Shown one piece after another: positions 34,598 to 63,300 of a stretch of 64,000 nucleotides of DNA. Location: positions 24,045,520-24,109,519 of the forward strand of contig OZ316893.1 of assembly GCA_973895155.1 (NCBI GenBank). The letters are read 5' to 3'. The stretch is from Marsupella aquatica. Its lineage: Eukaryota > Plantae > Marchantiophyta. Numbering within the stretch: the first letter of the stretch is position 1; every line of letters begins with the position of its first letter. Made by a program: the position numbers and the translations under genes. The notes under the pieces were generated by a model that made no database searches, was not told the origin of the DNA, and saw only the letters and a list, made by a program, of their open reading frames with translations.

Positions 34598-34639
34598 TGG
34601 GTCTATAAAAGAAAACCCATCAGTCCCACTCATGCTCGT

Positions 34640-34949: not shown

Positions 34950-35439
34950 CACTTTTGCTCCAGTTATTAAGTGGTCTACTTTACGGGTCATGACTGCTGT
35001 TGCTGCCTCCCAGGTTTGGACCATTTTCCACATGGATGTGGACACTGCCTTTCTCAATTGCAAGTTGACTGAATGTATATATCTGAAATAGCCTCCTAGA
35101 TTTATTATTCCCGGTACTGAGCACTTAGTTAGCCAGCTCAATAATTCTCTATATGGTTTGAAACAATCCTCCTGAGCCTGGTATGAGACTTTGGATGCGG
35201 TCTCACATGATCTAGGCTGGCAACGCAGTTCATGGGACAACAATCTCTATTATTATAAGGATGATGCTTCCATCACATTCATTCTTACTCACGTGGATGA
35301 TTTTTTTATTACTAGCAATAGTGTGTACAAGATTGCTGAGCTCAAGGCTGCCCTCCAAGCTAAATCGAGAGCTAAATTCAGTATCAAGGACCTAGGCCCT
35401 GTTCGCAAGTATCTAGGCATTGAATTTGAGACTTCAGAG

Positions 35440-35739
35440 GGGTCATTGTAGTGTGCGAGTAAACAGTAGAAATTTTCCTCGCATGAGCAAAAAGTTTACT
35501 CACATGACCCCTAATTTTTCTATATGCAATTGTCTCGCTAACAGTAAACTGCTTGATAACATCTATTTTGGGGACTCCTCTTTTTGCTAGCGATCTCGCT
35601 AGTCATCTGGAGTCATAAAAAACACACACAAAATAGAAAAGGCAGCAAAAAGCAAAATAAATTTAAAACCACAAGGGTCTCGCTAACAATACTCCCTTCG
35701 CTAACAAAACTCCTGTTTGCTCGCATTATAGAATACCTC
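35440..35739. mobile_element. 300-bp Mutator-like MITE with 9-bp TSD in the RT of copia 2
   Basis: TSD ACTTCAGAG at 35431-35439 and 35740-35748. TIRs gggtcattgtagtgtgcgagtaaacag and the reverse complement gaggtattctataatgcgagcaaacag match 19/27 ungapped. Removing it restores EFETSEHGITMH. Confidence 0.88.
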
Positions 35740-37017
35740 ACTTCAGAGCATGGCATCACCATGCATTAGAAAAGCTATTGTCTTGAAATGCTAGAGGAAT
35801 TTAAAATGTTAGATTGTACAAGTGCTTTTACTCCTCTTTCCCCTGGATTGACTCTTTCAGCAGATTCCTCAGCCCCTGATGCTGATCTAGAGCTCTATTG
35901 TCGGATGGTTGGAAAGCTCATTTATCTTACCAACACTAGACCTGACATTGCTTTTGCTGTCAGCATGGTTAGTAGATTCATGCAGCATCCCAAACTTCAT
36001 CATCTACAAGCTACTCAACATATTTTCCTATACATCTGCAAGCACACTATTGACTTTGGTATTCTGCACACTCAAAAATTGAATCTTGGTTCCAGCCCAG
36101 TTGCCTGGAACTTTAAAAGACAGGCTACCACATCAAGATCTTCCACTGAGTCCGAATATTTGTCTTTGTCCTCTGGTGCCCAAGAAGTGGTATATATTCA
36201 TCGTCTTTTACAGGAATTGGACATTTTACCGTCTGCCGCTGTACCACTTCAATGCACGGATCATGATATTTTATCCGCTCTTCCTAGTTCTGCTCTTACT
36301 GTTCATTGTGATAATCAAGGAGCCATCAAACTAGCTAAGAATCCTGTTTTTCATGCTAGGACTAAACATATTGAAGTTCATCATCATTTTATTCGAGAAC
36401 AAGTCTTGGAAGGGGAGATTACACTGCAATACATATCGACTGATCACCAGCCAACAGATATTTTAACCAAGGCTCTATCCCGGTTCAAATTTGAACAACA
36501 TTGCACTGCTATTGGTATTAGAGATTTATCTTCATATAGATAATTTTGACTTTACAAATAGACAACTTACATAGAATATTGTCAAATCATTCTTCTGTAC
36601 ATTTGTCTCTTAGTTCCTTTTTGCGTTGACCATTATATATTAGTCACTCCTCTGCTGATTCTATAACAGCTTAAGGAGTGAGGGGGGGGGGGGGGGGTGT
36701 TGGAATTCTACTTAGAATTATACTCTCTATGCAAACTGTATAAAATTGGTTACAAGCTATGTTATGTTCTTGTGTTAGTTTCTTGATTGGCATCTAGCCC
36801 CGTGGGTGCCACTTGCTGAGTATTGCCAGCAAGCTATTTAATGCGGGCCCACCCTGTGTTCATTGTCTTTTATTCATGATTCAGTAAAAAGGTGTCCACG
36901 ACCCTTTTCTTCAATGTTGACATTTCCAGAATCTTACTAGCAATAGATATCCAAGTCATGCAAGTTATTGAATAGGAACAGAAAGTCACAAGGACTATGT
37001 TGACATTCCAGAATCTT

Positions 37018-40000
37018 TTTTTTGCCTCGAAAAAACTCAATGAATTCCATTCAAAAAGCCAGAATACAGAAAGGGGGGCCCAAGAAGGCAACCACCCGGA
37101 AGGACCAGAGGTCAAGGTGCCGGGGCCGGTGAAGCCGGAACCGAGTAAGAAGCCACGCCTCAAAAAAGGCAGCCAAACAAGAAATTTGGAAACTACTACA
37201 GGAGCAGCACACTCCCAAAGACCGGCCAGTGAACAGGGACCGGCGAGGTACCGAACAGTGGGTCCGTGAAAGAAAAACAATCAGTCTACCAGTAGTGCAG
37301 CTTCAAAACCCAAAGAATCCGTTGATTCATGGAGGACGCGGAGGAACAGGTTGAACCTGAAGTGTGTCTTCATGAATTTGCCATAAGCCATCCCATGCAC
37401 CAAAATCCCGGGCCAGGTCCAGTCGTGCATCGGTGATGGTGGTCTTCCCTGACCGAATCCTGGCCCTATGTCTGGCCCAGTCACGTTTGAGGTAAATGCC
37501 AAGGCGTTGCCAGGCCTTCCTGATGACTCCGTGAGGATTTGGTCGTGTATGCTCAATAAAGTGTGTGCATCGGTCCTTCCAAATATTCCAGCAAATAATA
37601 GCCCTGAGAAGATGCCAGAGCTTTGTTGGAATGTCCCATGTATCTGGAAGTTCAGCCCCAACAAAAATGTGGACTAGTAGGAGGAGGATCCGTCCTGCTC
37701 CGTGAGAGAACGCGCATTGTTGAAGAATGGATTGCACCCAAGTCCATATGCCCTGAGACACAGCACACTCCCAAATGCAATGAACGATGTCTTCGTGTTG
37801 GTTCAAACCGCATCTAGTGCACCATGTACTAGGATCAGTGGGTGGGAGACGAGGAAACCTCCAATGCTGTGTCGCCGGGATGCGGTAAAGCAGTTGCCAT
37901 AGGTAGCAGCTTTCCCGAGCAGCACGAAAGGGGAGCCAGGTGCGTGTCCATAATGTTCCAGGGTCAGGGGTCCAGTTCAATCGAATTGCCCATTTGTGCA
38001 GGGCCTTGTGGAGGATACTAGGGGATCTCCCCTGGATTACCCGTAAATGAGCAGTGGATGTATCCAGGAACGGAAGGCCATCCTTCCACTCGTGCTGGAG
38101 CAAGGGTGCCAGAAGGCCGACGGGCCTCCCGATGCGAAGCATGAGGACTGCAGCAGCACTCGACTTCCTAACCAAAACCCTGTGCAGGAGTGCCTCCGGT
38201 GGTGGTGCAAAAGTGGCCATCTTGTGTAGACAGTTGTTGATGACTTGGAAGGTCCGTTTTGGTGCTGAGGTAGCCTGGGCGAATTGCCATTGGGTCGTAA
38301 TGAGTTGCCTCGTGGTAGAGAACTCCCAGATGTACAGGTTGCCATTCGGAAGCCATGCTTCCATGAAAATAGGGAGTACGCCACTAGGCTCATGGTGCAA
38401 TTCCGGAACACTCTCTATCATCTTCTGGTAAGCGCAAGCACAATTCCGGGGTAATAATGCACTAGGCCCGTCCTCCCACCTCAGGAAGTGTCCCTGTGCA
38501 TCCAGGACATCCTACATCAAATGAAAACCTGCCCTCCTAATTTTACGTTGTGGATTGCTGTGGCACTTCGCCCCACTGGAGTTGATGTGGTTGAGATGAG
38601 GTCGCCAGAGAGGGAGGTGCCTCCAACCTTCTAAGTGTCCCGGAGGTGTGGGCCTCAAATGTTTCTTGACGACATTCCATGCAGTGCAGACATTGATCCA
38701 GACTTGTGAGCCCTCCCGAGGGAGAGTATGGCAGTGAGAGAATGCCCACGTGAAGTCGTCAGCTCCCCATTTTTGCAAAGAGAGTTTCCTAATCTCAAAT
38801 TGAAGGAGTCGTCGGAGGGGGTGATCTCCTTCCGCCAAAGCCCAAATTATGAAACTCCCAGCCAAAGCTCTGAATTGTGTCACCAAGGAGATCAATCCGA
38901 GTCCCACGTGACTCTTGGGCTTGATGATAGTAGCAAAATCAACCCTGGCCCGAGCCTTAGTGTTCTGCCCTGCCCATACAAAGGCGGTAATCTTCTTTTG
39001 CAAGTTATCTAGCGTGCTAAGCTGCCCCGCCCATATGGGAAGAGAGAACCACAGAGTGCTCAGAACCAAGTGATTGGCCACAGTGACCCGGGCGATCAGC
39101 GAGCCAGAGGTCTTACGAACTTGATCCAATCTAGATTCCAGCTTTTCAGATAGATAATGGACCATTTGATGTTCCGAAATGTGCTGCGCAATAGGAATCC
39201 CAAGGAGCTTAGTGGCATTGTGTTCATCTTCCCACCTCCAGGGTAGCCGCCTGAATTCAATTGGGATCCTCCGTGGGGAAATGTATGCAGCCTTGGTTTT
39301 TTCCCAGGCACAGAAAAGGCCGGAAGCCTTGCCGAAGAGGTCTAGAACCAGCCTGCTTCTATCGAGAAATTGTGTCTCGGCCCGAATCAAAAGAGCTAAG
39401 TCGTCAGCAAACAAATTATGAACATTGTGTACCCCCAGGTGTGGGATGTCGACCCCCTGAATGGAGCCCCTGCTGACTTCTCTGCTTAAGATGTTGCTAA
39501 GGGAGTCGATCGCGATAAGAAAAAGTAGAGGAGACAATGGACACCCCTGTCTCACCGAGCGGGCAAGGTTAAAAGGTGAGGCCATCCTCCCATTAAGTAG
39601 CACTGCCGAAGATGCAGAGGCATGGGTGGCACTCAGAAATCGTGTGAGTAGGCCGTTGAACCCCGTCTTCTCCAAGATTGACAGCAGGAAATGCCATTCA
39701 AGCTTGTCGAAGGCCTTGATGATGTCCAGCTTCAGTAGTATGTAATCCAAACCGGATGCCTTAGCATGGTGCAACGTTTCGTTTAGAAGCATAAGAGAAT
39801 GGTGGATGTTGCGCCCCGGGAGGAAGGCAAATTGCTGAGGCGAGATGAAAAGCTGTAAAATTGGAATAAGCCGCATCTGGAACGCTTTAGCTCCGATCTT
39901 ATGGGCTACATTCAACAACGTAATGGGGCGCTTATTGGTGAGGGATCTTTGGTTGTCTTTCTTTGGGAGGAGGACAATGAGGCCCTGGGTGATCTCGGGA

Positions 40001-41081
40001 GAGAAGTTCTCCTCAGCTAGGCCAAGCAAAAGTGCTCTGTGAAGCGATGGGCCCACCGTGTGCCAATTTGCCACGAAGAATTCGACGGGGACCCCGTCTG
40101 GGCCAGGGCACCTATTGATTGCCAGCGCAGTTGCTGCTTTCCCAAGTTCTTCCACCGTGAGGGGTGCATTGAGAAGATTCTGATCCTCCAACGGGATGCG
40201 CCTAGATTGTAACTCGAGGACCTGAGACACTTGTTCCCAGTTGAATCCAGCTGATTGTCCGAGGATGCCTTGGAAGAAGTTGGTAGCAGTGGCAGCCAGA
40301 TCTTCCCACCCACTGACGATTTGTTCCTCGGGGGTAAATAGATGGGTGATCTCCTTATTCATGGCCAGCCCCCGAAAGCTCCTAAAGAAGAGTTTGGAGC
40401 ATTTATCTCCCTCGCCAATCCACCTAGATTGCAGGATAAAGTCCATCCATCGAACCTGTTCTTCTTCAAATTCATGGAGGAGGGTCTCCGCATCCTTGAG
40501 GGACCTCTGGTACACTGAATCCATTGGGTCTCTCTCCAATTGGAATTGAGCAAGGGCCAAGTTGTGACGGAGCAAAGATTCCTTCTGCCTTCTCTCAATA
40601 GCTTTCCTCTTACCCCAGCATCGGTCGATCTTCCGGGCCTTTTTAAGACACCGAATGAGAATGACATCCGCCTTCATGCCCCTGGCAGTACAAATTTCCT
40701 CCTCCTGCTCCCACATTAGTGAGATACGGTCTTGAAAGGCACAAATTCGTTGGTGACCGGCATTCATTCGATGCAGAGATGGTCTCTTGATGAGGCCCGT
40801 GGGTGTGAGCTGGGCAATAACCGGGGCATGATCTGATAATGTGATGCCGGGTAAGATGGTGGATGCAACATCAAATTTCTCCCTAGAAGCTCCCCTGGAG
40901 ATATAAATGCGGTCGAGCCTTCTCAGAACCCGATCGCTATCAGCTTGTACATGTTGCATGCCTGGGACATGTCGAAAGCTTCTCTTATTATCCCAACTGA
41001 ATCTCAGGTGCCCTGGATGCTCCTGGAAAGTATCAACCAGGTGCAAGCGTCGCTTAAGGTGGCGCCATGCCCGTCCTTCGC
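37018..41081 (-). mobile_element. 5'-truncated L1-clade LINE
   Basis: Poly(A) tail (T run at 37016-37023) and TSD TTCCAGAATCTT at 37006-37017 and 41082-41093. ORF2 has the endonuclease tail RRLDRIY/SDHAPV, RT motifs PGPDG, KRPITLLN, KLDIIKAFD, RQGCPLSPLLF and FADD, and the zf-RVT motif CTRC...HCIWEC. Confidence 0.96.
37327..41079 (-). pseudogene. LINE ORF2 (EN C-terminal part, RT, zf-RVT) with a single in-frame stop at 38512-38514
   Basis: ORFs 38512-41046 and 37327-38421 are in the same frame and the 30 codons between them are open. Confidence 0.9.
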
Positions 41082-42550
41082 TTCCAGAATCTTACTCGCA
41101 ATAGATATCCAAGTCATGCAAGTTATTGAACAGGCAGAAGCAGCGAAGAGGAAGGCAGACACCACATTGCAAACCAAAAGCCCGGGGAACTGGTACAAAA
41201 TGAACAATCCCAATCCCAATCTGTGCTCGTTGTTTGCTCACACACAGGCGATAGTCGTCTGCAATCTACAAGCAAAAACGTTTTGCAAGCAGTTGTTCTG
41301 TAAACGTCTACAATCGACAAGCAATTGTTCTGCAAGCACACATTCTCAATCTTGATCATTGTGTGCAGTCTATGAGCAAAAACGAGATCGTCTGCAATCT
41401 ACAAGCAAAAATGAGAGTAAATTTAGTCAATCCCGTTCCTGGTGACATGATGAATGTGAAATCCGAAATGTCCCTGTGAAAATGTATGAGTGAAAAGTGA
41501 AAGTAAATGTTAAGAGTAAATCCAAGTAATTGAAAAGCGGGCATGGGCAGCGGCAGCATTCAGAGAAAAAGTGTGGCCTGAAAAAGTGACATCAGCCAAA
41601 ATGTTAAAAAGGAGAGGCCAGGTGGCTTCCGGTAGGCAATGGGGGAGAACCTATGCAGTATACAGGGATTTGTCTCTGTGAATGTAGCAACGTTTATCAA
41701 CAAAGGTCACACCAATGCAAGCTACTGTACACTAGCAACACTCAACTCTCGAAGAAATTTCCTTGATGAAGACCTTACGAAACAAAGAAGCACAATTATT
41801 GAGTGCTCTGGTTATCAATAAAAGAAAGAGACTAAACTTAGTAAAACAAGAGCCAAACAAAGTGTAACCAAAAACAGAGGAAAAAGTCCAGGCAGGACCC
41901 TATTAAACCAAAGAAGTAAAGGTATCATGAACTACACTACAATCTAAGGCTCATCTGTTTCGGGAAGTTTCACCACAAAAGTGGGTTGCCCTGAGTGTTA
42001 GGGACGCTTGAAGAAACGAGGGATCACTGCATGTTTACGTTCTTTCCAGTGGGTTTTGAATCTCAAACCTTAAATTACTCAACACGGCTATAGGGGCCAG
42101 GATTGTTTCCACACTATGAGTAGAATTCAACATATTAATTTATTACATAAATATCTGCTAAATGATTCTGATGACGAACTAGGTGATTTGTTTCACCCTG
42201 CCTTGGCGGGACTCTGGCATGCACATAGATTCGTTTTTCATCGCCCCCTTCGCACACATTGCTCCTTTTAGTCCTGTATCTCCAGTGTTCTTTCATCATA
42301 GCTTTGTTGTATTGCACGAGGTTAAAATTACGCACGTACTGCTTCCATCAGCAGCTGCAGCTTTTCCGGTCACGAGTAACATGCACATTCCATTCTCCAA
42401 GCTATACACACTCTCCAGGACTCGAACACTTTGCAATCACAAGTGGTATGCATTTCCTTTTTTGTGGCCTGATGCTACGAAACCTCACAAATCTCATTTT
42501 CACTCAAGGGCTTGTGGACGGGAACGGGATCTACAACTTCAACAGGCATT

Positions 42551-45315: not shown

Positions 45316-46455
45316 CGGACCCCCATTTGGGGTCCTTTCCAAAAATCCTGGCTCCACAATGTGCCACATCATCATGGCATGCTGCAAACACAAAGGGACT
45401 TGTTTTTGGATAAAATTAAATTTTGAATTCGTGTTTGTGACAACTTCTTTGTAAAAACTAGGACGCCATGCCATAAGAGAGAATGTAAGAAACCTTACAT
45501 TGCAAATCAAAGATTAAAGATTGAGGTAAAACCTGTAACCGTTCTATTTACATTTTAATTTTATTCAAAACATAAAATTTTCCCAGTAGCAATTTTTCAT
45601 TTGACATTGACATTTTTCATTTGACATTGTTGAGTCAAATTATAATGAAAACTCACGTATAATATGACATTGGAAAGATCTTGAAGAGATGGTCCTAATG
45701 AGCTCACGGTTGTCAACATTTGGTAAGAATTGAGTAAGTAATTTGAAAAACATATTCTACCCATGATTTTATAATCTCTAACGTTAATAGAAATCTTTGT
45801 TGCACAACCTCTGAAATGTTGATCCCTTCCATGAGAATGAACCCTCAAATTGACAGATTTTATGAGTACTAAGGAGATTATGAGTTTTAGAATTTTTTTA
45901 GCTTTTTAATGAACTTAACATTGATAGATTTAGTTGAGTTCTGAGGATTATGAATTTGCAATGTTCTTTAGCTTTTCAATGAGTGGTGATGAGTTTCTAA
46001 ATTTCTCTAGCTTTCGATCAATTTTGAATTCTACAATTGGAGATTTGTTTCCGTGAAACTTTTTGTCTCAAACAATTATGCAAGGTTAGGATTTGATTAC
46101 ACCGATGGCTTCTCTCTCTTCGTCTCTCTGCGTGTAGGAATTGAAAAGTGATTACTTCAATACAACTTGAGTGCATCTGACGTCCCTTTGGTACCGTGGA
46201 GGAAACCATCGAGTACCGTTTTGCTAAAGTGGGCAATTAAGCTACCCACACATTAAGCAGTAGTTCACATTGTAGCTGGTTTTGTGATTGATGTTAATTA
46301 TGGTTGCCATGGTAAGTTTGGCAATTGTTTCAAGTGTCAAGCATTGACTTGTCCATTTTTGAATTTTTTCTTTAGACTCGAAGATCCATCTAGGCTTCAG
46401 TTTCTAGATAATTGCCTCTAAAATAACATGGGGGTCCACGGATTAATTTGGAGTA
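45316..46455. mobile_element. Dispersed AT-rich repeat, copy B (homologous to 5566-7031, lacking the MITE)
   Basis: Long collinear similarity to copy A in the same orientation. Confidence 0.7.
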
Positions 46456-48885: not shown

Positions 48886-49599
48886 CTCTTGTCACATTAT
48901 TTTTCCAATATAGACACTAGTCCTTGAGTTTGCACTAATGTAGTTTTTGACACTTTTCTGATTTTCTTCATCCTTTTTTTGTTAAAACTTGCTTTTATTT
49001 TTTTGTGGTTAAGTGTTTGTCCTCTTTGGAACTCTTTTTCTTTCCTTACTTCCATTGTACTTGTTTTACACTGATGTGTAAATTTTTCTGGAAGATTCAC
49101 TTTTTCTTTCTAGATGTGACAAGAGAAGATCTTATGGAGGACTTGAGGGTCCCTTTTAAATCAATGATTTAAAATAGGAATGGACCAAGAAGTCAATAGA
49201 GGAGACCTCCAAATCTAAAATCTAGGAGAGAAGAGAGCTACACATAAGCAAAAATTGGGTCCCACTCCATTCCATTCCATGTAGGATTGGTAACAAGTTT
49301 GGTTGAAAGTGCCCCCAACATTTTGTAAAGTGAAGCAACAATTTGTCCCTAATGGATGACTTTGGTTCAAAGTGCTCCAAACTTTTTGTGAAGGGCAGCC
49401 GTACGTTTCTCCCTAATGCATGACTTGGGTTAAAAGTGCCCCCAACTGTTTGTAAAGTGAACAGGGGCAGTTCCGTCCTCACGGATGAATCTGATCAGAT
49501 CTTGGAGACAGAAAAAGAATGAACTTGTAAGTAAAGTCACCCTTTAGATTTATTCCCCCCTGAAGATTCTTAGTTTGGTTTTCCAGTTTTCTTCTCCTT

Positions 49600-50621
49600 T
49601 TGCCAGTGTATTGCAGCCGGCCGTTTGCCTCCTCCCGTCTCTCGGCTCTTGAGTGCTTCTCGTTTATTGGCCATGGCTAAGTCTTCACCGGGTGTTCGGC
49701 CAATAGCTATTGGAGAGGTATTTCTTTGTCTTGTGTCTCCCACACTTTCATCGCAGTATAGCTCTGCACTATTGGATCACCTCTCTCCACATCAGTTTAC
49801 AGTGGGCGTTCTTGGCGGTTGTGAGACAGTTATTGCGGGTATTCGCACTACCTTGGACCTCCACCCTAATTGGGTTGTCCTCCATGTTGATGTCTCTAAC
49901 GTTTTCAACACGGTTTCTTGGGCAACAAATTTTTGTGCTTTGAGGGCGGCGGATCCAGACATCCTATCCCTTATCCCCTTTGTCCGTTGTTTTTATGGAC
50001 TCGAGGCCCCGCTCTTCTATAGTCATCACACCTATACTGGAGAGTATACCACTCTTTTGCAGAAGGTACACGTCTGGGTGACCCTTTGGGTGGGCCTCTT
50101 TTTGCCATTGCCCATTTTATAGCTTTACGGGAAGCCATCGTGGCCCACCCCCAGTGTATCTTCCCCTCCCTTTCAAATGACACCCACACCATTGGTCCTC
50201 CCGCAGCGGTTACTTCTGCCCTTGCCACTCTCTCCACCCATTTGATGGGCCTTGGTTTATGGGTTCAGCCCGTGAAGAGTCGTGCATGCAATCCAGTTGG
50301 GTTACCCTTTGATCTTGTGCTTCCCCTGGGTTACTACGTCCAGCCGATGGTCTTTGGGTCCTTGGCTCCCCAGTCGGTACCGCCTCCTTTTGCTCATCTT
50401 TCATCGTTGACACTCTACAGGCTACCTTAGCCCCTACTCCTATGCTCCCTAAGTTAGCAGATTCTCAGGTAGCATTTGGGATGTTGTTGAGGTGCATCCA
50501 CCCTCGTGCGCCTTATTTGGCTAGGACGCATCCCCCTATCGAGGGTCTTTGTCTCCACCTTCGAGCGTTTGACGTCTGCATTCATGAGACTTTGGCCTCT
50601 CTTTTAGGGCCAGATATGTTG
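49600..50621 (+). mobile_element. Degenerate CRE-clade reverse transcriptase fragment, cut at 50621 by the CACTA insertion
   Basis: SRLLAMAKSSPGVRPIAIGEVF, HQFTVGVLGGCE, VDVSNVFNTVS, GTRLGDPLGGPLFA, FPSLSNDTHTIGP (degenerate xxDD motif) and VLGSPVGT, with frameshifts. Confidence 0.8.
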
Positions 50622-51416
50622 CACTAGTACATTTTAGGGCCAATTACCGATATTTACACCATCGGATGCCTTCGGGAAAATGCGACGCCATTTTTGAGGT
50701 TTCCAATCCTAACTGCAGCAATCCGTCCGATACTCTCAGAATCGGATATCGACCATTGGACCTGTTTTGGACCACCCGATACCAATACTATCGGACTTTG
50801 CATATCTCCTGAAATCGGATACATTAGTTGTCCGATATCACAAGAGTCGGAAGAAGCCTCTCCTTGCACCATGTGAAGATCTGTTGTCCGACTGTTGTCC
50901 GTATTAATTTGCAAGGGATATTGCGTTAAAATTCCCATCGAACATTGCGATGGTGAAATGAACGGACGTTCCAATAGTTTTGGTATTGGAATTTGAAGTA
51001 TAATTGGTATCGGAACATACGAAATGGAGGGGTTCGGAAGCATTGGAGGGGTGCAATAGAAAAAGTATCGGAAGAGTACTCGGGAAAGACCTAGCTTCAT
51101 TGCAACATTTGGTTTCTTGTGGGGATCTTTTCTGTTGGGGTTGAGGGTGGTTCTTGGGGGAATTTATACAATACAACATAGAGGGATTTGTTGAAGATGT
51201 TGAAGAGGTTATTTGAAAGAGAATGCCAATAGAAGTAATTAACACAAGAAGGATATATGGCCACAAAGGGTACTCAAACTCCAAAAGGGAAACATACCCC
51301 AAAATGTACAAGAGTGATCCAAGTACTGGGATCACAAAAGTAAGCACATCCAACTCCTAATCTCGTCTAAGTCTAAGGCTAGACAGTATGTCTCTATCTA
51401 TCTAAGCTAGTCTAAG

Positions 51417-54403
51417 TCAAAATGGAGCATGTCGTCCCTTCCTCTTTTTGGAACGAGTCCGAGGTGGTGGGGGTACAATACTAGTCTGGGCAGGAGCCTG
51501 GGTGAATGGGGGCTCGTCCATGGTGACTTGGTCCACAACATCTGGCCCCTGTGTAGAGGTCATAGGAGGCACTGGACACACGCCACCACCACCACCACCA
51601 CCATGTGACGCTAGGGAGTCATGGGAAGGTCCGCTCCCCCCACTTGCATGGCAAGTATGAAAGGAAGCTGCACCACCCCCACTAGCCCCGTTGCCAATGG
51701 ACTGCCGTGATGTACCACCCTCGCTCCCTCCTGAATGGCCAAGGGCAATATGAGCACCCCCAGTCTGGGCTGAAGGGTGAGAGACACCAACACCACCGGC
51801 TGTACTCCCTCCTAACTGGCCAGGGGAAGGTTGACGACCCCCAGTGCGGCCTCAGTGGTGAGAGCTAGACAACACCGACACTACCTCTACTCCCTCTACT
51901 CCCTCCTGACTGACCCTGAGCACTAACACCGCCCCCAATGTGGCCTGAGTGGTGAGACACACCACCGACTCTAGCTCTACTCCCTCCTGACTGACCAGGA
52001 GCAGTAACATTGCCCCCAATGTGGCCTGAGTGGGGAGAGACACCACCAACACCACCACTCCCTCCTGACTGGCCAGGGGCCTTAACACCACCCCCTGTCG
52101 AGCCTGAGTGATGAGAACCTCCCAAGCCACCCCCATCTGCACCAGAGTGTTGTGAGCCTCTAGAACACCCTTCCCCATGAGGCTCTAATCGGCCAGACCC
52201 ACCAACAGCACATCGCTCATCTCGCAACACATGCCAAGGGCCTCGAATATCAGCTCTGCCACTAGCCCGTGACCGGCGCCGGGGACCCTCACCACCTGTG
52301 CCAACAGCCCGTGAGTCACGTCTGCCACTAGATCCAACCCCTATGGCTCTAGGCTGGTGATAGAGGGGTCCCACTAGCACCACCCCTACTGGTCCTAGTA
52401 TGTGTCGCACGAACATCCGCTATGGGACCATGACGGGTCGACTGAAGAGCCCTAGCACTACCCCTAACTGTATCGGACCGGCGAGGAGGGGGTATGGCCA
52501 CAATCCCCTCCTCTGGGTCCAACAACTCTGAATCAGATTCGCCGGATCCCCCACTGCTATGCCCTGAGCCCTCATCCACCGAGTCCTCACCCTCCGATCC
52601 CTCCTCATCTGAGCCCTGCATATATCCAACCAACAACCCAAATTAGTATACGCTTTTTAGAAATAAATTTCAACACCCCATTAAGACATTGCATTAAAAA
52701 TAATCTCCTTACCGAACCTAGCTCCTCCTTCAAGTGAATCCGAAGAGCCCGTGGTCCTTGTCTCTTAGCCAACTCCCTCTCTTCTGGAAATATTGGTCGC
52801 CCATGCTCGCGCTCCTGCCCCCCTCAAAAAATGCACCGGCAACCAAATTAGTCCCAATTAGTGCCACCGGGTCACACCCCAATTAGATCCACACTGGATC
52901 ACCCCCAACACGTTTTGAAATGGTCAATGGAACCAACCACGATAATCTGCAAGGGTAACCGTCAAAAAATTTGAAAATTCAAACTGTCCAATTACTTTCC
53001 GATTGTTTGTCCGATAGCATCAAGGTCGGATTGGAATCGGACACGACGTCCAAAAAAGCCATAGCAGTATTTCCGACTGTCTTTCCGATTCTATTACTAT
53101 CGGACCATAATCGGAAATAGGGCCACGACAAAAAAGATAAGAGTTATCGATTGCATGCATAGCGCGCTTGCAGGGCCCGCACGGCTTGACAATAAGAGGG
53201 GACTTTGGGCCGGGGCTCTTCAGGCAAAGAAGGGCCTCAGGTGATCAGGTGAATGGAGGGAAGAGCTTGGAGAGAGAAGGTGGAGTCTACTTATAGATTC
53301 TGCCTTGAGACGCAGTGACGCGCCCTGCCCCATTCTGTGAGTGACTACTGGCCTGTTATCAACTCGAATCAATGCCTTTTGCATATGTGAGGGAGGGTCC
53401 CTAAGCTGAATTGACTTTGCATCCCAATGTTGCAGGTTTTGATCAGCATGGCGGGTGTCAATAGTCTCCCCTACCTGGGCCCTCACTGCAAGGACTTCTA
53501 GCTCAGCTTGCCATTATCTCCTTGCCTACCAGGCTCGAACCTGTAGCTCGGTTTCAATCCAAGCTGGCCATACCTCCACAGGAATATCATTTGGGCACCC
53601 TCTTTGCCTGATCACCTCCTCACTGTCCTTGCACTCACCAAGGTACTTCCTCAGCTTCTCCCTGATGTGATTCCTTCTGTCTGCAAGGGATAGAGTGATT
53701 TTCTTGTTTAAGAACCTGTCATCAATGAATGAGCCATTGCAAAAACGTTCCTTCACCTGCTCACAAACTCTGAACTTCTCTTCTTCCTTTTTCTTCCCCC
53801 AGTAATCTAACACTCCAAAATGGGATCTAAGTACTTGCCCAAGCTGACTCCTGAAAAGATTATAGCTCTTGGCCCTCGGAGCTCCTCCCTCATTCAAATA
53901 AATTTTTGGCCTCTTGCTTCTCTCCTCTACTCGCAGCTTCTCCTCCTCGGCTCTTTTCCTATCTGCAGCCCGTGCCTCTCTACGTAAGGCCTTAACTCTC
54001 TCTGTCGTGGTGAGAGGGCCTCCACAGGTACAGTCTCCTTCTCCTCCCTTCTCTTCCTCTTCTTCTCTTTCTCCCTAGTACGCTGCCTCTCCTCAAATGT
54101 TTTCTGAGCTTCAGCAAGAACAGTGCTCCTAGAAGAGTCTAGCAATCCTTGTGTCAATGTAGCCACCTTTTGCGCATGCTCTATGGAGAGCCCTACCTGC
54201 TTATGGAAAATTTCAGCCATGATCTCCCCAAAGTCTTCTGATGGCCCTGCTCCATCCCCTGTAGCTCCTCCAGCCCCACCTCGTCCAGCTCCTGACCCTC
54301 CATCTCCACCATCTCCTTGCCCTCCAGCTGTTCCTCCAAATTCTGTTCCTGTCCCTGCTCTTGCCCCTCCCCCAGCCCCTCCATCGCTCCCCTCCATAGC
54401 CAT
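51417..54403 (-). pseudogene. CACTA accessory ORF (TnpA/Transposase_24-like), multi-exon and degraded, with a Gly/Ser/His-rich repetitive C-terminus
   Basis: MAMEGSDGG...; LGQVLRSHFG...VCEQVKERF...LADRRNHIREKLRKYL...GCPNDIPVEVWPAWIE; a small exon at about 52713-52815 (EREHGRPIFPEERE) flanked by AG/GT; repeated ctccctcct.actg units at 51720-52120. Has stops and frameshifts. Confidence 0.6.
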
Positions 54404-55305
54404 TTGCTCTTCGCTGCCGTGCGCCACGCGCTTGTTTTTCACAAAGACATGAACTCCCGACTGTTTTTCGATGCAAAGCCCGACTCAAGTGCATTTGCAC
54501 TTAGGTCGGGTGCCCTAAAAATGCTTCCGACTACTGATCCGATTCTATTTACATCGGAAATTCCCATTAAAAATGTATCGGACATTGTATCAGATGAACA
54601 TCGGACCCCTCCTGCAAAGCACTAACCTAAGGCTCTTCCGATATAGAGAACATGGTAAATGAATTTGGTCTTTCTTTGGATGACACTACGTTGGTTCTAT
54701 GTGTTGTCCAGGGGTTCTACGGATAGGGCGGACCATTGGAGCCGTGGTATCCCGAGTCACATGCATGATTTTGGAGGTGGTTGGTATGTATAAGGGTTGC
54801 AGGTTATTTTTAAAGGTTACTCCAAATTTTTAGGGTGGCATTTAATTTGGAGTGCCAAATACAATTTGACCTAGCTTACCTTATGCATTTTGCATTCGGA
54901 ATTTTGCAGTTCCTTTTTGTGGAGGGTTAGGTTATTGCGATTATTTTGGGTCCATTTTTGCAATGCATCATGCACAGTGAGAGCCCGCACATCTGAAAGG
55001 TATTACCACCTCTACAATGTGAGCTATATTTACTATGAAGTATTACCTATAATTACTATGAATTATTGATATTGGTGTACCCCAATTAAGCTCAAGTGTA
55101 CTTGTGCAGCAATTTCAGATTTGTCTTAGAATATAGTCTAAGGCCAAGATCCTAGTCGGCACTGCAAAGCGCGGGTCTCATTCAGGTGTTATTGATATGA
55201 AAACATCTCTCTGTCTTTTTTGCCTTCATATTTATTGCATTGGCCTTACACATTTAATTCCCACAATGGCACATAAAAGGTTATTTTTGTATGGGTGATG
55301 GACAG

Positions 55306-55541
55306 ATGTCTTCTTCCGAGAGTTCAGAGTCGGATTCCAACTCAACCTCTTCATCTTCTGAGGGGGACATTCCTCCCCCCCCCCCCCTCCGAGGCTTCAA
55401 TGTCCTCCTCCTCTAGGCCCTATTCCATGTTGGTGTGTCCGATGTAAAGGCATGGTGGTTCGTCAAGCCTGGGAAGCCATTGAGCATATTGAGAACTATG
55501 GTAGACACGAGGGCAATTTACCGGGATATTCCACTCGCGAG
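55306..55541 (+). CDS. First coding exon of the CACTA plus-strand gene: transposase-associated Cys/His domain
   Basis: ATG at 55306 after acceptor ggacag. MSSSESSE..., then across a 1-nt shift in the C13 run (55375-55387) IPCWCVRCKGMVVRQAWEAIEHIENYG, matching the CxCxxC...H-x3-G pattern. Phase-0 donor gag|gtatgc at 55541/55542. Confidence 0.7.
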
Positions 55542-55749
55542 GTATGCACAATTAATTGCTCTTGGAGACATTGACATGTACAATTTGCCACATTGCACCC
55601 ATACATTTATTAATTGTTGGTTTTTTTGTGATTGAATAGGTGCCTCGTAGGACCCCTCCTCCATTGGTCTCTAATGACTTATGGGTAAATACACTTTTGG
55701 CTGGTGCAAGAAAGTTGCTTGCATCATCATCAGCTCCCTCTCCATCTAG

Positions 55750-56559
55750 CCACCCCCCCGTGTTCAGCCAGAGAGTGTAGCAGATCCATCTAGGGTTGGA
55801 CGCACCCGAGCACGTTCCCAGAGACAACGTCGCCATTATGATCCCTTGCCAGGCACTCATGAGACCGAGGAGCAAGTTGTAGACCGTACTCTTAGAGTGC
55901 CACCAGGAGAGGACTATGTGGAAGTGGAAGGGAGGTTGGGGTTGTCATATGTCACCGGGAAGGCATTGACAGTGTTGAAGGATTTCTCGTCTGAGAGATT
56001 CAAAATACCCCCTGGCCTAACCACTGATACCCCTATCCACATATGGGGTCACCAATGGATAGTGAAGGCGTCTTCCCTTGGCCCTGACATAGGATTTGGG
56101 GTGTTTTCCTTGGAGGACATTGTGGTCCCGCCCAAGCCGTGGCCCCAAGGTTATGATGGTGAGCACCTATTTCCATACATTGGTCCTGTGTATACTTCAA
56201 AATGTTGGAACATTCTATTGCGCCAACACCCATCGTGGGGTGTCTATGCATTGCAAATGGATTCTGATCCAGATGAGCTCATACGGAGGCCTTGGCATTC
56301 TTGGATGATTGATGGCGACCCTATTTGCTCCGATAATATAGCTGGGTACATCAATAGTACTCGTGGTAGAGGGAGAGGACTTAGGCCTAATGTAGAGTGG
56401 ATTCAGATATTTGGTCCACCTAGAGAGCCTTACTATGTAAAACATATGGATGATCATGTCATGACTATAGCCATTACAACCATTAGGGCTGGCCAGGAGT
56501 TGTTTTGTGACTATGAGTGGGATAGGCCCAAGAAAGCATTGCTTTCTCGCCCCGTGTAG
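55750..56559 (+). CDS. SET-domain protein exon inside the CACTA element
   Basis: Uninterrupted frame with VKASSLGPDIGFGVFSLEDI (GxG motif I), LFPYIGPV, YAL, IDGDP..NIAGYINST (motif III), PNVEW and AITTIRAGQELFCDYEW (motif IV). Confidence 0.88.
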   Translation, partial: PPPRVQPESVADPSRVGRTRARSQRQRRHYDPLPGTHETEEQVVDRTLRVPPGEDYVEVEGRLGLSYVTGKALTVLKDFSSERFKIPPGLTTDTPIHIWGHQWIVKASSLGPDIGFGVFSLEDIVVPPKPWPQGYDGEHLFPYIGPVYTSKCWNILLRQHPSWGVYALQMDSDPDELIRRPWHSWMIDGDPICSDNIAGYINSTRGRGRGLRPNVEWIQIFGPPREPYYVKHMDDHVMTIAITTIRAGQELFCDYEWDRPKKALLSRPV

Positions 56560-56797
56560 GGCAGACATATATGTATATATACCACCTTTTTGTTTAACAT
56601 AAAATACATGATACAGGTTTTCAAACTAAATTGGTTAGTTGTGTAAGTCAATCTTTGATCAAGGTTTGAAAGTATACTAGTAGAATACATGTGTAAAGAG
56701 AATTGTAATTTTGCGGGGAAACCAAAAAGCCTATACCTTTAAACACTTGTCTCATTGTGGCCCTTCTAATATAATACGTATGTTTGTGAAATGTTAG

Positions 56798-59700
56798 AAT
56801 GCATATGTTCAACCAGATATGGGGGTATTATCACGAGCAATGCGGCAACACCTTGTTGAGGCCATGGGTGATTGGCATAGGGCTCAAGCATCAGAGAATG
56901 AAGATGTCCCTCTTGAGCATTTGTCTAATGCCACCAAAGATAGACTTGAGGAGGAGAGGGCCATGGATGATCTTATGCACCAGTTCTATGACGTGGAGGA
57001 TGGTGACCATGATATGGGTGATGCATTTAACACCAATGCACATCCTCATGGTGACAATCCTTCACAAGGTTCTTCCTCTAGACAATGGGAGGAAGCTCGT
57101 GACCATGCGCAAACACGGATTTTTGAGGGGTCACAACTATCTCGGCTCTCAGGAATAATGTTATTGTTGAACTTGCAGCAAAGACATGGAGCAAGCAATC
57201 TCCTTCTTGATGATCTCTTCAGGACCTTGCATAGTCGTATTTTGCCAGAAGGGAACTACTTGCCTAGTTCATGGAAAGCGGCAAAAAAGGTGTTGAAATC
57301 CATAGGCCTCAAATACGAAGTCATACATGCTTGTGTGAATGATTGTGTTTAGTTTAGGGGGGAACACAAAGATGCCACTACATGTCCTACATGTGACCAA
57401 CCGAGGTATCGAGAGGACATGCTGACTGGAAAAGCAGCACAGAAGGTCATGAGGTATTTTACTCTTATCCCCAGATTACGGCACTAGTACCGATGTGCAG
57501 AGTTGGCTGAGTATATGGTGTGGCATTCCAAGAACCGGTCAGATATGAGTTCAGATTGGCCGACCATGCGTATGATGGTGGACTCACCTGCAAATAGGTT
57601 TGTGGAGGACCGATGGGGTGACTTCAAGACAGACCCACGTCATGTACGACTAGGTTTGGCATCAGATGGGATCAGCCCCTTTGCATTGGCCGGGAAGGCC
57701 CAACCATACTCAGTTTGGCCAATAGTCCTTACAAATTACAACATCCCTCCATGGATGGCCATGAAGAAAGGTCATTTGCTGCTCTCAATGATTATCCCAA
57801 GCCCCAAGCAAGTAAAAAAGATTGATGTTTACTTGCAACCATTGTTGGAGGAGCTTCAACAAATATGGAGGGGAGTGGATTGCTATGATGGTCGAGTGCT
57901 GACAGGTGGTTTACCTCATGAATTTAAATTAAAAGCCATCGTTATGTGGACCATACATGATCTTCCTGGTATGTTAAAATATACCTTCCCCAATATTATG
58001 CATGGTTTTTTATGGTAGATAATACACTATAGGATAATGTTATATATAAAAGTTTGCGTGGCTATTGTTTAATGTATTGATTGTGTGTGTTGTAGGGTTT
58101 GGATATATCTCTGGGTTGCAGACATCAGGATACCGAGCCTGCCCAACTTGTGGTCCTGATTTGGAGGGAGTGGCACGCCCTAAGTCTACCACCCTACGGA
58201 AGATAGTTTACATTGGTCACACAAAGTATCTCCCCCCAGAGCATGAATGGAGGCGTGACCCATTCTTATATGACACGGATGATGGCCAACCAGACACACG
58301 CCCTCAACCAGTGCCAAGGGATCCACGCTATTGGAAGGAGGTATGGGATAGAGTGACAGACCCAGATGATCCCTTACCATTGGCCCGGTGTGGCATGACT
58401 CATTTGTCTACATTAATGTCAAAGCTACCATATTGGGCTGAGATGCCAATTAACAATTTGTTTGACCCTATGCACATTGAGGGGAACGTTGGGAGGTCAT
58501 TGATTCGCCATCTATACGGAGAGAAAGACAACAACTGGAGAGAGAGTTGTGAGGAGATGGGGATGCATGGTCCTCATGGTTTTTGGCCATCTATGGATCC
58601 CCCTAATGCCCCCCTTACTATTCACCCTCCTCGGGTATTGACCAGAGGCGAGCGGATTGGGTTCCGCAATCGTATAGGGTCAATGAGGTTTCCTACGGGC
58701 TACGGGGCCAATCTGCACAAGGCATTTGGGGGACCAGACTGTCCACGTTGGCCAGCTTTCTTGAAGACCCATGATTACCATCGTCTACTACAACATGTCA
58801 GTCCAGTGGCCATCATTGGATTGGGTGGTGAGGATCTTTGTGATGCCCTGTGGTCATTAGGTAAGCTCTTGAGGTGGGTGTGTCAAAAAGAGGTGAATGA
58901 GGATGAGATTGCAGCTATGGACTTGTTTGGAGTGGAGGTATTGTGCAAGTTGGAGAGGGCACTCCCTCCTTCATTCTTTAATGGCCAAGTTCACTTCCTC
59001 CTACACCTAGTGCGTGAGGTTGGCATTGCAGGGCCGGTACATTGTCGTTGGATGTACTGGGTAGAGCGGTTTATGAGAGTGATGAAGTCATATGTGTCAA
59101 ATCGTGCGAGAGTGGAAGGTAGCATCGCTGAGCATCATCTTGGAGCAGAGAGCATGTTTTATTGTACAAACCAATAGCTACACTTGATCCCAGTGCACCA
59201 AGGGGGTGGATAGACGAGGCATCAAGGGAAGCAGACTTTGAAGATGACTGTCTTACAGGGGCAAAGGGAGAACGACTTTTGGGCTCAGCTGAGCACCTTC
59301 AACTCACTACATTTATGTTGTATAACTTGTCTGAGATTGCGGGAGATTGGACAACTTTTTATAAGGAGGAAAAGGCAAATAGTCATCGGCCACGCATCTT
59401 CCCCAAGTTTGTCCCATACATGAGGGCAAAGTTGACCAAGATTGATGCCTTGTTGGAGCAAGGGGAGAGCGTGTCAGACTTCCCTTTGGTTACAGACAGC
59501 CTTTGCACCTTGGTTCATGGACCATTACTCACGGTGACAACTCGGACCGCCATGTGGTCAAAGGGAAGGCATTTTCGTGTGCAACGGCTTGATGATAAGA
59601 GGGCAGCTACATAGGATTGTGGGGTCATGGGTTGGTTCACCCAAGATTCACAAAGTAGCACATCTAATAGGAATCCAATACGCTCTACAGTGGCCCACTA

Positions 59701-60052
59701 TGGCAAGATTGAAGAGATATTGACAGTGCGTTATCATGCACACACCACTTTGGAGGAGGTGGTGTTGAAGTGCAAATGGTTTCGGATGAACCTTGTTGGC
59801 CATAACCGAACTTGCAAAGAGGATGCTTGTGGGTTCACAAGGTTGAAGACAGGTGCAAATAGGGTCATTAGCTCAACTTGGAGAACCTCTGATCCATTTG
59901 CATTCCCCCACCATCTTGAGCAGGCCTTCTATCTTCCGTATCCTGATGATCCTGAGTGGTCCATTGTCATGACTTATATTCCACGATCACGATCCATCAT
60001 CCAGGAGCGACCCAATGTGGTTGTAGTTGAAGATTTGGACCCTGAGCCTTGA
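56798..60052 (+). pseudogene. tnpD: CACTA TnpD transposase (Transposase_21, DUF4218 and DUF4216-like regions); intron 57969-58095; several stops and a frameshift
   Basis: LPEGNYLP, IHACVNDC, CPTCDQPRY, RHVRLGLASDGISPF, YSVWPIVLTNYNIPPW, IDVYLQPLLEEL, HDLPG|FGYISG, DPMHIEGNV, LKTHDYH, WMYWVERFM and DPFAFPHHLEQAFY. Stops at about 57350, 57485 and 59612, and a frameshift at about 59170. Confidence 0.95.
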
Positions 60053-60317
60053 GGTCCTTGGTAGCTAGTGTACCTTGGGATTAATCTCGTAGGACCCCTC
60101 CATATGTTTATTTTTACCGGCATTATATATATCATTGTTGTATTTCATGTTCCCTCTACTATGAAAGGGACCAGATTTCTTAATAAAGTTATGAGTATTT
60201 GTTTTCCACACCATATCCGATACAATGAACATCGCATAATTGTCGGAAGCATCTTACCTTAATTCCGAAACCTTGTCCGATTCAGTCTACATCGGACCCC
60301 TCTTAACAGTTATAACC

Positions 60318-63300
60318 CACTAGTAGAAACCGGGGCAATGTAGACCATACCTTATAGGACTAAGCCCACTAAGTCCTTTTTCCATACTTGAAACGACTCG
60401 CACCCATTGCACCGGTTTTGTTGAAGACTACAAAAGACTATTAGTGTTTTGTGGTTCACTAAAAGACTATGAGAAGTAACCTTGCTACTTTGTGAACGGT
60501 GAATAGTCTAGCACATCATGGGTAATGTTCACTTATGTTGAGGAGGGGTAATTCTATAAAGAGGGTGATAGCAAGGGGCATAACTCAATAAATGGCCTTA
60601 TTTGTGACCAGAAAGGTTTTGGAGTGAGGTTCATGGAGGGTGGACTACGGAGGGATCGATTACTCACTCCATCTATAAAAGGCCAAGATGCACAAAGGTA
60701 GATTTGTACCGGTCTCAAGGGGGTGTGGGTTTAGGGTTAGGGGGTTGTCCAGCCGAAGAACACTCGATTGAAATAGTGACGCAATGGTTTAGGGTAAAGG
60801 AACATGTTTAGGGACCCTAACTTGTTTGCTGCCTTGGGAGGATCTTGAGAGCCTGAGGCTTCTACTTGCGCGACCGTTGGAGGGGAGCGAGTTGGAGCAT
60901 CCGTTGGAGGGTCAACTCTGCATACACTTTGCACCTCCACACTCTGTCACACCCTAATCCCGCCACATTTCTAACCCTTTGCACTTTATTGTGTTGTCTT
61001 TGCAGGCATTCACGGGCATTCACGGCCACTACTGTATAGTGAGGTTTAGTGTTCCACCTTTCTTGTGGTCGGTGCTGCGGACTTAGAGACGTGCGGACTT
61101 AGAGACAAAGGATTTGGTTTAGGGTCACCGTCGTTGAGCTGAGCACTGTTACAACTTGAGCAACGACCAAGCTTGGCAGCGCTCTGGGATTTGTCGGCCA
61201 CATTGACAAGTCAGAGGTGAGTGTTTGTTCTGATAGTGTTTTGAAGGGTTTTACAGTCGCGGTCGGACAGGAATGTTCTTCTCAGGAGGCGCTGAGTTTG
61301 ACAGGTCCATGTAGTTGCGCCACATGGCCCTCCTATTTTTCTTTTACTCCCACAGTGAGCTCCCGTATGAGCTCTTGTGTGAGCTTTGTTCAGCTGTGGT
61401 GGGTGCTGAGATGATTTCCGTTGAACTCAGCTATGCTATGCTGATTTTCGTCTAAGCAAGCTCGGGGGAGGGTTGCCGGTTGGACGTTGGAGCTGTGCTT
61501 GTGATATTTTGGGGTTCGGGCAAAGGGCGGAGGGTGAAGATCAAGCATTGCCATTTTGCTAACGCTGCATGGTGGAAATTGGACCAACCAACTCCTTGTC
61601 TACGGTGTTGTTGAGCTGGGCGAGCTGCGACAAGGGACCGAGCCAGGCGACCTGTGAATCAAAGCCCATCAACCGCTGCTGAAGGTTTGATGTTCTATAT
61701 TTGAAGCTCTCGTTTGCTTTCTATTTGTTAGTCTTTCACAGCTGCGCATTAGTGTTGGCCCTATCCTCCGTCCCTCTACTGGCCTGCTACTGACATTTGG
61801 TTAATCATAGTTGTTCACTGCTGTGCATTAGTGTTGGCCCTATCCTTCGTCCCTCTGCTAGCCTGCTACATTTGGTTAATCAAAATGCAATGTCTGTTTG
61901 AGTGAGCTGATCATCTCCAATGTAGTATGGGCTTGGGATTTACATATATGTTTCCTGCTTCCAGCAGATAGGCAATTGCTTCCAAGCTCTTTGGTGCAGA
62001 CATCTCTATGGAATGCAATGCCCTGTATGCCAGAGCTTTCATATATTGGCAGGTTCACATTTGCTCTTGGAATATATGATCCCGAAGGCTTCATGAGCAA
62101 ATTTGCTCTTGTTCAGAATTCTGTTTATGTTGTTGTTTCCATCAATTGCAGCTTGGATTTTTGAATATATGTCCTGTCATTGATGATAGAGGGTGGTTGA
62201 GATTGGTTTTCTTTCTTCTTGGTAGTGGGTCAGTGTGTTGGCATTTTCCTCATGTCACTCATTCTCATCGGACAAGCTGCGGATTGGTACTGAATATTCA
62301 TTTAGCCTATTGCTGCCTCCCACCGCCATTGCCGATTGCCGTTATCATCGTGTATTGCTTGCTTGCTTGCTTGCCACTGCCTTTGTTGGTTGCCACCCTC
62401 TTCATACTCTCTCGCATCTATCTTCCGATATGAACACGCAGCCAAGCCCACCAAAAGCTCTGTCCCTACAATCCCTCCCAAATCAACTTTCTTGTTTCCT
62501 GCTGCTCATGATCACCGCATTGTTCTTCCCTATTTTTGTTTACTTATTGGTCTCTCCACACTTGTTGCTTCACATGACTATTTTGCTCCTCCCTGGATCC
62601 GAACATGCCTTGTGCCCAATGCTCCCACGGTGGAGTGGGGTGGTGAATAGACGACCTCAACACCGTTGCAATCACATTTGGAGGGGTTAGTTTTTTGCAG
62701 CTTAAACCTGTCGGGATTTTGCGCTTGTGGCAACGCTATCCTTTCTGCCACTTCATGAGTTTGTTTATGCTGCAGTGGTCGGTCTTGCGCAACTCAATGA
62801 GCCAATTTCATTTTCCCTGTGCACTTCTATTTCTCAGAGAATTCCCTGGTCATGCTCATTTGCCCCAGAGTTAGAAAACAAAGAAGAAGAGCTGACTAAT
62901 TGTAATTCCAATCCATATCCTGATCGGTCAAGGATTGTGAACTACATTGGCCTTGTCATCGGCCGAGGTCACCAAATTTTGCTTGGTTTCATTCCTGTGG
63001 AGCACTGCTGTGATGGATGAATAGTTGTGTCTTGCCCTAAAGTGGGACATTGGATGAATCCCTCATGCCTTGTCTGTTTTCAAAAGCTCACAGTGTTTAC
63101 CTTTAGCTATGGGCGGTTGACATCTTTTAGCATTCTTTGTGGTGGTGCCTTTGTTCGTTGCAGAGCTCCTGCTCCAACTGCCCCTTTTTCCTGGTAAGTT
63201 GTGCAACCTGGATTCCAGTATAGATTGAAGTATTCTTGTCTTAATTGTGTCTATGTACATAGTGTCCTTCATTGCAACTGTCGCTTTGACCTGCTGAGTT

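Follow-up and report, generated by a model that had tools for sequence, protein, structure and literature searches.

Does a CACTA transposon of a liverwort encode a SET-domain protein of its own, and what would such a protein do for the element that carries it? The question is raised by a 64-kb stretch of DNA from Marsupella aquatica, analysed here as a whole (the window), for which a first-pass annotation had claimed an uninterrupted frame of about 270 codons with all four SET motifs in order. The frame at 55750-56559 (+) holds 269 stop-free codons, a length reached in 0 of 2000 base shuffles of 55001-57000, and the four motifs do follow one another at residues 115-120, 141-145, 196-203 and 245-255. 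A profile check had also been proposed, and PF00856 matches at 27.9 bits against a cut-off of 22.4 (E 3.3e-6), identifying the domain as SET. The first ATG of the frame is residue 171, downstream of motifs I and II, and since no ATG precedes it, 55750-56559 is not a gene by itself.

The coding unit is an exon that begins further upstream. Three relatives (P0001, P0003 and P0023) match from 55640, directly after an AG and in a frame other than that of 55750-56559. The SET exon as drawn here (55640-56559, +) has a phase-0 acceptor, followed by a short helix, a Pro/Arg-rich linker, the SET core (55897-56532, 212 residues) and a stop codon (56557-56559). Its frame is broken at or near a run of seven C (55753-55759); four of the five records or joints that cross this run differ in length so as to keep one frame. 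The close record X2-11 has the same broken frame as the window copy, and the family may therefore in part have spread without a working SET protein. Among the differences listed, 40 per query out of several hundred or more, 13 variants fall in the SET core, 7 synonymous and 6 nonsynonymous, a sample from which nothing is concluded. No TSD or TIR was found around the exon among the 20 largest direct families and the 25 longest inverted pairs listed.

The first-pass annotation had placed the SET frame between the left CACTA terminus and the TnpD body, on the strand of the latter. That much stands, the terminus being at 50622 and the Transposase_21, DUF4218 and DUF4216 frames lying on the other side, but the exon proves to lie inside the TnpD gene, behind a Cys/His exon (the finger exon) at 55306-55541 and ahead of the TnpD body, which starts at 56798. 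The finger exon (+) encodes a Ser-rich stretch and the motif CxCxxC-x12-H-x4-G, which is of the transposase-associated zinc-finger type, and ends at a phase-0 GT donor at 55542. Its frame is broken at a run of 13 C (55375-55387), and the single record measured across the run keeps the frame. When finger exons were scanned alone, PF13963 was reached by two from metagenome loci (L002, E 7.9e-4; L003, E 1e-4), both below the 27.7-bit cut-off, and was not matched by those of the window and of locus L001; all four align on the CxCxxC...H...G motif. Upstream of the finger exon lie a small exon, coding or 5' UTR (55130-55185, +, AG before and GT after), and before that another exon ending at 54999. 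Diverged copies retain the 55130-55185 block and differ on either side of it (joints 55003-55121 and 55187-55296).

The transposase body consists of exon A (56798-57968, +), with a phase-0 acceptor, a PF02992 match (E 2e-38) and premature stops at 57350 and 57485, and exon B (58096-60052, +), with Transposase_21, DUF4218 and DUF4216, a frameshift near 59171-59174 and a premature stop at 59612; the intron between them is 57969-58095. Position 57351 is T in other copies, in the runs listed. E values are 2e-38 for Transposase_21, 2e-29 for DUF4218 and 1.6e-6 for DUF4216, the last just below cut-off. Phase 0 is common to the finger donor (55542) and to both acceptors, that of SET at 55639 and that of TnpD at 56797, and the finger exon is therefore likely to be spliceable to either SET or transposase, although this agreement is no blind test because the acceptors were chosen by T-richness and homology. 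A TnpD acceptor at 56816 (phase 1) was considered and dropped for 56797, which is phase 0, more T-rich and at the start of the conserved block. The window copy is dead, with two frame breaks before the SET core and three stops and a frameshift in TnpD. The breaks at the two C runs (55375-55387 and 55753-55759) may be real slippage or assembly error.

The element begins at a left CACTA terminus starting with CACTAGTAC, accompanied by a subterminal cluster of TCCGA(T/C) in both orientations (50622-51150, +), where the motif reaches 39.7 per kb; over 1-50621 its density is 1.6 per kb. A contig from run X2 departs from the window sequence at 50622, as at an empty site. Further clusters lie at 52991-53160 (14 matches, 82 per kb), at 54491-54660 between two divergent genes (11 matches, 65 per kb) and at the right-hand side (60151-60325, +), where the cluster ends at CACTAGTA; across the two ends and the two internal clusters the density is 40-82 per kb, against 0.8-3.8 elsewhere. 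The cluster at 54491-54660 is likely the promoter region of the divergent genes. The second of these genes, broken and on the minus strand (51417-54484), stands head-to-head with the TnpD unit and has Gly/Ser-rich 81-nt repeats in its 3' part. It matches no Pfam family above cut-off, and its Atlas neighbours are unnamed Streptophyta clusters (0.95), with Transposase_24 a mere lead (0.89, 11% of members). It is at most a tentative candidate for a TnpA-like gene.

At the right, CACTAGTA matches the left TIR only in its palindromic core, and neither a CACTA right terminus matching the left TIR nor a TSD was found within the 64-kb window; the left flank of the element reads TTG, and GAA follows the candidate right end at 60325. 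Another insertion may separate this point from the true right end, and CACTAGTAG at 60318 was considered both as the right TIR and as the left end of another element. The stretch 60318-62000 contains a second, right-facing CACTAGTAGAAAC and, at 60340, a stretch that opens with TGTA, includes a TATA-like site and has the look of an LTR start; nested insertions here may conceal the right end of the element. The CACTA is itself inserted in a decayed reverse-transcriptase element (49574-50621, +; weak RVT_1, E 0.096), which has deep coverage in all four public runs and whose continuation was not found rightward within the window.

Elsewhere the window contains a LINE-like element (37327-41091, -) with an 859-codon frame carrying RVT_1 (E 2.6e-29), one in-frame stop and then a 394-codon frame. 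Copia-like remnants, recognised from translation (30991-36543, +), are broken up by 62-nt units in a near-perfect tandem array (34578-35012) and by 19-nt repeats rich in pyrimidines. An F-box gene (12511-13854, +) has a single frame and a kelch-type beta-propeller, and a cytochrome P450 gene (42473-44888, +) has at least two coding pieces. Two copies of an AT-rich repeat (5658-7027 and 45393-46449) are 75-94% alike by block, with internal units of 70-72 nt.

Whether the SET exon belongs to this one copy or to a family was addressed by a profile search of 1.84 billion representatives, which returned 113 proteins at E <= 0.001 (50%-identity level). Thirty of these 113 clusters, chosen mostly by length, were looked up, including 11 from Riccia sorocarpa and 3 from Calypogeia fissa, and in the models of 10 of the 11 Riccia proteins SET is joined to TnpD, to the finger motif or to both. 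Of the 113 relatives, 12 match the finger or TnpD; most of the others are short calls on contigs too small for spliced exons. The nearest relative, CAM6082608.1 of Calypogeia fissa (67% over the core), has a model in which the finger and SET exons meet at the very junction predicted for the window. The window sequence, P0001 and CAM6082608.1 group together (SH-aLRT 99) in a quick tree of the 59 of 129 rows that cover the core, which includes no outside SETs and cannot give the origin; from this grouping a leafy-liverwort host was judged likely. The Riccia and Calypogeia gene models are annotation, partly ab initio according to the available text of PMC11735767, and several of the SET-TnpD fusions are probably artefacts.

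Four metagenome loci at 31-45% identity extend the family further. In three of them (L001, L002 and L003) the finger exon is present, and both its donor and the SET acceptor are phase 0; in L004, where the upstream sequence is limited to 282 bases, no finger exon is seen. A phase-0 downstream acceptor with TnpD-like sequence is seen in L003 only, and its TnpD start match is marginal (11.8 bits, against 11.2 for the best of 200 shuffles). Diverged copies in runs X1, X2 and X5 bridge finger-SET and SET-TnpD with the exon blocks kept and the introns different, and none bridges among the matches listed for X6. A single-sequence query for longer fused forms gave 0 of 335 candidates, a blank that is uninformative because the profile search found the fused Riccia models. 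Pattern-limited locus scans gave 0 of 131 metagenome stretches with alignment A1, 0 of 57 and 0 of 69 in viral contigs, and 1 of 61 in GTDB, a bacterial SET of the ordinary kind that has both NHS and a post-SET Cys motif.

The first-pass annotation had named as grounds for abandoning its view either the lack of any SET match or an exon confined to this copy, matching a host gene fragment and with dN/dS near 1. Profile and structure searches both give SET, and the exon proves to be conserved and present in many copies within a CACTA lineage that includes Riccia and Calypogeia; judged by these sequences, it is a family trait of that lineage and not a passive capture. Two distant SET-family members from Calypogeia fissa (P0063 and P0077) have no finger or TnpD part, and P0063 has Cys/His knuckle-like repeats; these may be parts of some other mobile element, or domesticated genes. 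In P0014, a 2141-nt Logan contig, finger and SET lie in one continuous called protein; the contig represents either a transcript after splicing or a copy that lacks introns.

Structure prediction, which had been suggested as a further check, gives a confident model that matches SET folds (Z up to 12). Given an alignment of 66 relatives, AlphaFold models the SET core with pLDDT 92 and pTM 0.87; with four sequences only, pLDDT is 32. A profile of the 66 relatives finds solved SET domains, with LegAS4 the best (E 2.4e-6), and a PDB search with the single sequence gave 0 matches. LegAS4 is also the best Foldseek match (E 3.5e-7). By VIA-align the best entry has Z 12.0, rmsd 3.0 and 126 aligned positions, and the scores run from Set1 (12.0) through EZH2 and SET8 (11.8), SET7/9 (11.6), NSD2 (11.4) and LegAS4 (11.2) to PRDM3 (10.7). 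Among the top 50 entries of the wide fold search 48 are SET or SET-bearing by title, the exceptions being BurB and a Toxoplasma ring protein (unplaced). Giant-virus SETs were matched in the viral structure library, and the Atlas neighbours of the domain are giant-virus SET clusters (0.95-0.96). No subfamily stands clear, as Set1, EZH2, SET8, SET7/9, NSD2 and LegAS4 tie at Z 11-12, and the target lysine is therefore a guess. PR domains score Z 10.6-10.7, about 1 below the best rows, and a PRDM2_PR Pfam match is absent in the window. Residues 1-50 of the core (55897-56046) form a conserved N-terminal extension of beta-hairpin and helix, modelled confidently, to which most solved SET domains align only partly.

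The active site was assessed in the 66-row alignment, with denominators giving the rows that cover a position. The motif I glycines are kept in 55/59 and 60/60 rows, Gly145 in 61/63, Asn202 in 54/61, Glu250 in 50/52 and the catalytic Tyr255 in 47/50. Tyr143 is Y or F in all 63 rows (Phe in 17), and Tyr166 is kept in 62/65, with F in the other three. The residues expected of a SET lysine methyltransferase, namely the GxG of motif I, the Asn of motif III, and the Glu and catalytic Tyr of motif IV, are thus all present, and the relatives that keep the SAM-binding glycines, Asn202 and Tyr255 are 22-69% identical to the window. The residue two before Tyr255 is small, most often A, C, V or I; by the Phe/Tyr-switch rule a small residue at this place permits multiple methylation. 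The canonical motif III carries an NH(S) histidine, the absence of which had been remarked on from the window sequence and holds across the family, with Ser in 60 of 61 rows. Pre-SET and post-SET Cys clusters, likewise reported as missing, are not visible in the 55750-56559 translation. Activity cannot be assumed, because the motif III His is Ser and the post-SET zinc site is absent. The core is acidic (pI 5.45), and an Arg/Lys patch stands ahead of it in 26 of 33 rows; of the control windows, 29 of 119 have such a patch.

Plant SUVH, E(z), TRX and ASH proteins have pre-SET, AWS or CXC and post-SET Cys modules together with class-specific reader domains. Pfam finds PF00856 alone in the SET proteins of the window, P0001, P0002 and P0148, and the alignment has no Cys clusters, which bears out the earlier separation of this protein from those plant classes. 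Judged from the conserved residues and modelled fold, the SET-fold protein is likely a lysine-methylating enzyme.

Our preferred explanation, taken whole, is tentative: a bryophyte CACTA may make two proteins from one transcript, of which one, the finger-SET protein, would methylate the histones of the element's own chromatin and so keep the element active. Its steps differ in strength. It is quite probable that the choice of alternative 3' splice sites would join the finger exon either to SET, ending at the SET stop, or to TnpD. With similarly good confidence, intact copies are expected to be active SAM-dependent lysine methyltransferases, probably adding more than one methyl group because the residue two before the catalytic Tyr is small. 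The kept SAM and lysine residues, the match to LegAS4, and the acidic core with its Arg patch are the reasons for which a finger-SET histone methyltransferase is proposed. If the enzyme is active, we narrowly favour a histone tail as its substrate, bound through the acidic core and the Arg-rich patch, with the finger tethering the enzyme to the element or transpososome. If a histone is the substrate, there is a reasonable case that the mark would counter silencing, an effect that VANC and TnpA achieve through different mechanisms; it is more likely to act against silencing than for it.

The alternative that survives best, itself unlikely, is that the protein is an active methyltransferase of a non-histone protein, be it TnpD, the TnpA-like partner or a host silencing factor. 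An N-terminal domain common to finger-SET and TnpD could place finger-SET in the transpososome, and SET7/9 and SET8, which methylate non-histone proteins too, are among those that tie for best fold match. Histone enzymes are nevertheless the best profile matches, and the acidic core with its conserved basic patch resembles the nucleosome-binding design of LegAS4/RomA, as far as the available account of that design goes.

We consider it improbable that the mark is a repressive one, of H3K27 or H3K9 type, damping the element's own copies or neighbouring host genes. EZH2 shares in the tie (Z 11.8), and giant-virus SET clusters are the Atlas neighbours; the chlorella-virus vSET writes the H3K27 mark. 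H3K27me3 is also found on Marchantia TEs (available text of PMC8616336). The tie includes H3K4 and H3K36 enzymes as well, however, and the SRA or pre-SET module of plant H3K9 enzymes is absent, while known plant TE accessory proteins oppose silencing, as far as the accessible text of 10.64898/2026.08.24.746577 describes them.

A similarly improbable reading is that the finger exon serves one protein only and that SET and TnpD come from separate transcripts rather than isoforms. The window copy has an in-frame ATG for TnpD at 56819, and no protein joining finger directly to TnpD was found among the relatives retrieved. That Met is absent in all six relatives with a matching motif, however, so TnpD needs an upstream exon, and the TnpD acceptor block is conserved from 56791, six bases ahead of the AG. 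The SET exon likewise has no start codon of its own, and the finger that precedes it is of the transposase-associated type.

Loss of catalysis would change the proposal in another way, leaving a SET domain without activity that would serve as a reader or decoy by binding histone tails or SAM. The Ser in place of His in motif III, Phe for Tyr143 in 17 of 63 rows and the missing post-SET zinc cluster all speak for such a protein, which we nonetheless hold to be decidedly unlikely, given that the SAM-binding glycines, Asn202 and Tyr255 are kept across 22-69% identity and that the active LegAS4 does without the same His as aligned. Passive capture of a piece of a host gene, of no use to the element, could draw on the broken window copy, on Pack-CACTA capture (known from the available text of PMC8616336) and on P0063 and P0077, whose lack of finger and TnpD parts means that a non-CACTA source may exist, but it is largely refuted and very improbable in view of the 113 relatives (50%-identity level) with conserved catalytic positions, the exon order and phases, which are unchanged at about 35% identity, and the 30 clusters looked up, none of which is named as a canonical plant SET.

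The finger-SET histone methyltransferase, if it proves true, would be a case of a plant transposon placing a histone mark on itself. The plant transposon anti-silencing proteins VANC and TnpA are DNA binders that lower DNA methylation, and in the literature examined, to the extent of its available text, no histone-writing enzyme was found among such proteins. SET genes are recorded in several transposon groups, where their role has been proposed rather than tested, as far as the accessible accounts go. A compact, well-folding 212-residue domain in multi-copy liverwort elements would make it possible to ask directly if the chromatin state of a transposon can be written by the transposon itself, and the choice between finger-SET and TnpD splicing would offer a handle on the balance of transposition and self-protection. 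Some annotated liverwort 'SET domain-containing' genes are parts of transposons. The broadest reading is doubtful, namely that in an old CACTA lineage of bryophytes a splice switch in the transposase gene serves to make a SET-class histone methyltransferase that has no close host counterpart and is aimed by its finger at the lineage's own copies.

No land-plant or bryophyte CACTA with a SET domain was found in the open literature, with subscription journals, Repbase Reports and preprint supplements outside its scope, nor was a CACTA-SET found in the available text of PMC8616336, PMC11982613 and PMC11735767. The first-pass annotation could recall no plant CACTA-SET family, which agrees with this for land plants but not for the EnSpm/CACTA superfamily, where a SET is already known from Plavaka PAG2; the idea is less unprecedented because PAG2 has been described in red algae. 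The red-algal Plavaka elements, members of that superfamily, carry the accessory gene PAG2 with a PF00856 SET, proposed to modulate transcription (available text of 10.1101/2025.02.11.637652). Both are thus EnSpm-superfamily transposons with a conserved PF00856 SET accessory. PAG2, as described there, is a separate gene that combines SET with a DNA adenine methylase in a three-gene cassette, whereas the liverwort SET is an exon inside the transposase gene; a PF01555 DNA methylase was absent from the window frames and the relatives scanned. The transposases also differ, being TnpD-type in the liverwort (PF02992, DUF4218, DUF4216) and Plavaka-type in the red algae, and the two SETs are compared by description.

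Among other superfamilies, SET genes have been incorporated by HarbingerS and MuDR families of Phytophthora (Kojima 2025, PMC12730594, in its available part), and SET-carrying Helitrons are cited in the accessible text on Bostrychia (10.1101/2025.02.11.637652). These SETs, as reported, are accessory genes in other superfamilies and hosts, in contrast to the TnpD-nested exon of the liverwort. A closer likeness in gene structure is offered by maize En/Spm and Arabidopsis EN/SPM3, which produce TnpA and TnpD by alternative splicing, and the TnpA of Spm3 has anti-silencing activity (available text of PMC13547354 and 10.64898/2026.08.24.746577). As far as these accounts go, En/Spm and the liverwort element are alike in drawing a transposase and an accessory protein from one CACTA transcription unit, which in the liverwort is predicted. 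The second product of En/Spm is the DNA-binding TnpA, whereas that of the liverwort is a SET-fold protein, with the TnpA-like candidate encoded by a separate head-to-head gene.

As an enzyme, the liverwort protein is most like LegAS4/RomA (PDB 8SWI, 5CZY), a minimal SET without the NH His, with which its active-site Tyr and Asn positions align. LegAS4 methylates H3K14, and an allele mutated at six residues is catalytically defective (available text of 10.64898/2026.05.29.728679); by a hand count over a HMMER alignment, four of these six correspond to Tyr143, Tyr166, Asn202 and Tyr255 of the liverwort protein. LegAS4 differs in being bacterial, in its identity of about 20-26% and in having an ankyrin reader in place of the finger, and neither descent from it nor H3K14 specificity is claimed. 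SETMAR/Metnase also has SET and transposase sequences in one transcription unit, and its SET domain (3BO5) gives Z 8.5 to the SET core model. SETMAR, however, is a host gene present as a single copy, in which a SET domain with pre- and post-SET modules is fused to a mariner transposase, whereas the liverwort family is mobile and multi-copy, with a SET exon that has its own stop. SET-carrying DNA transposons are already known, and it is the nesting in TnpD with a shared finger exon that sets the liverwort family apart.
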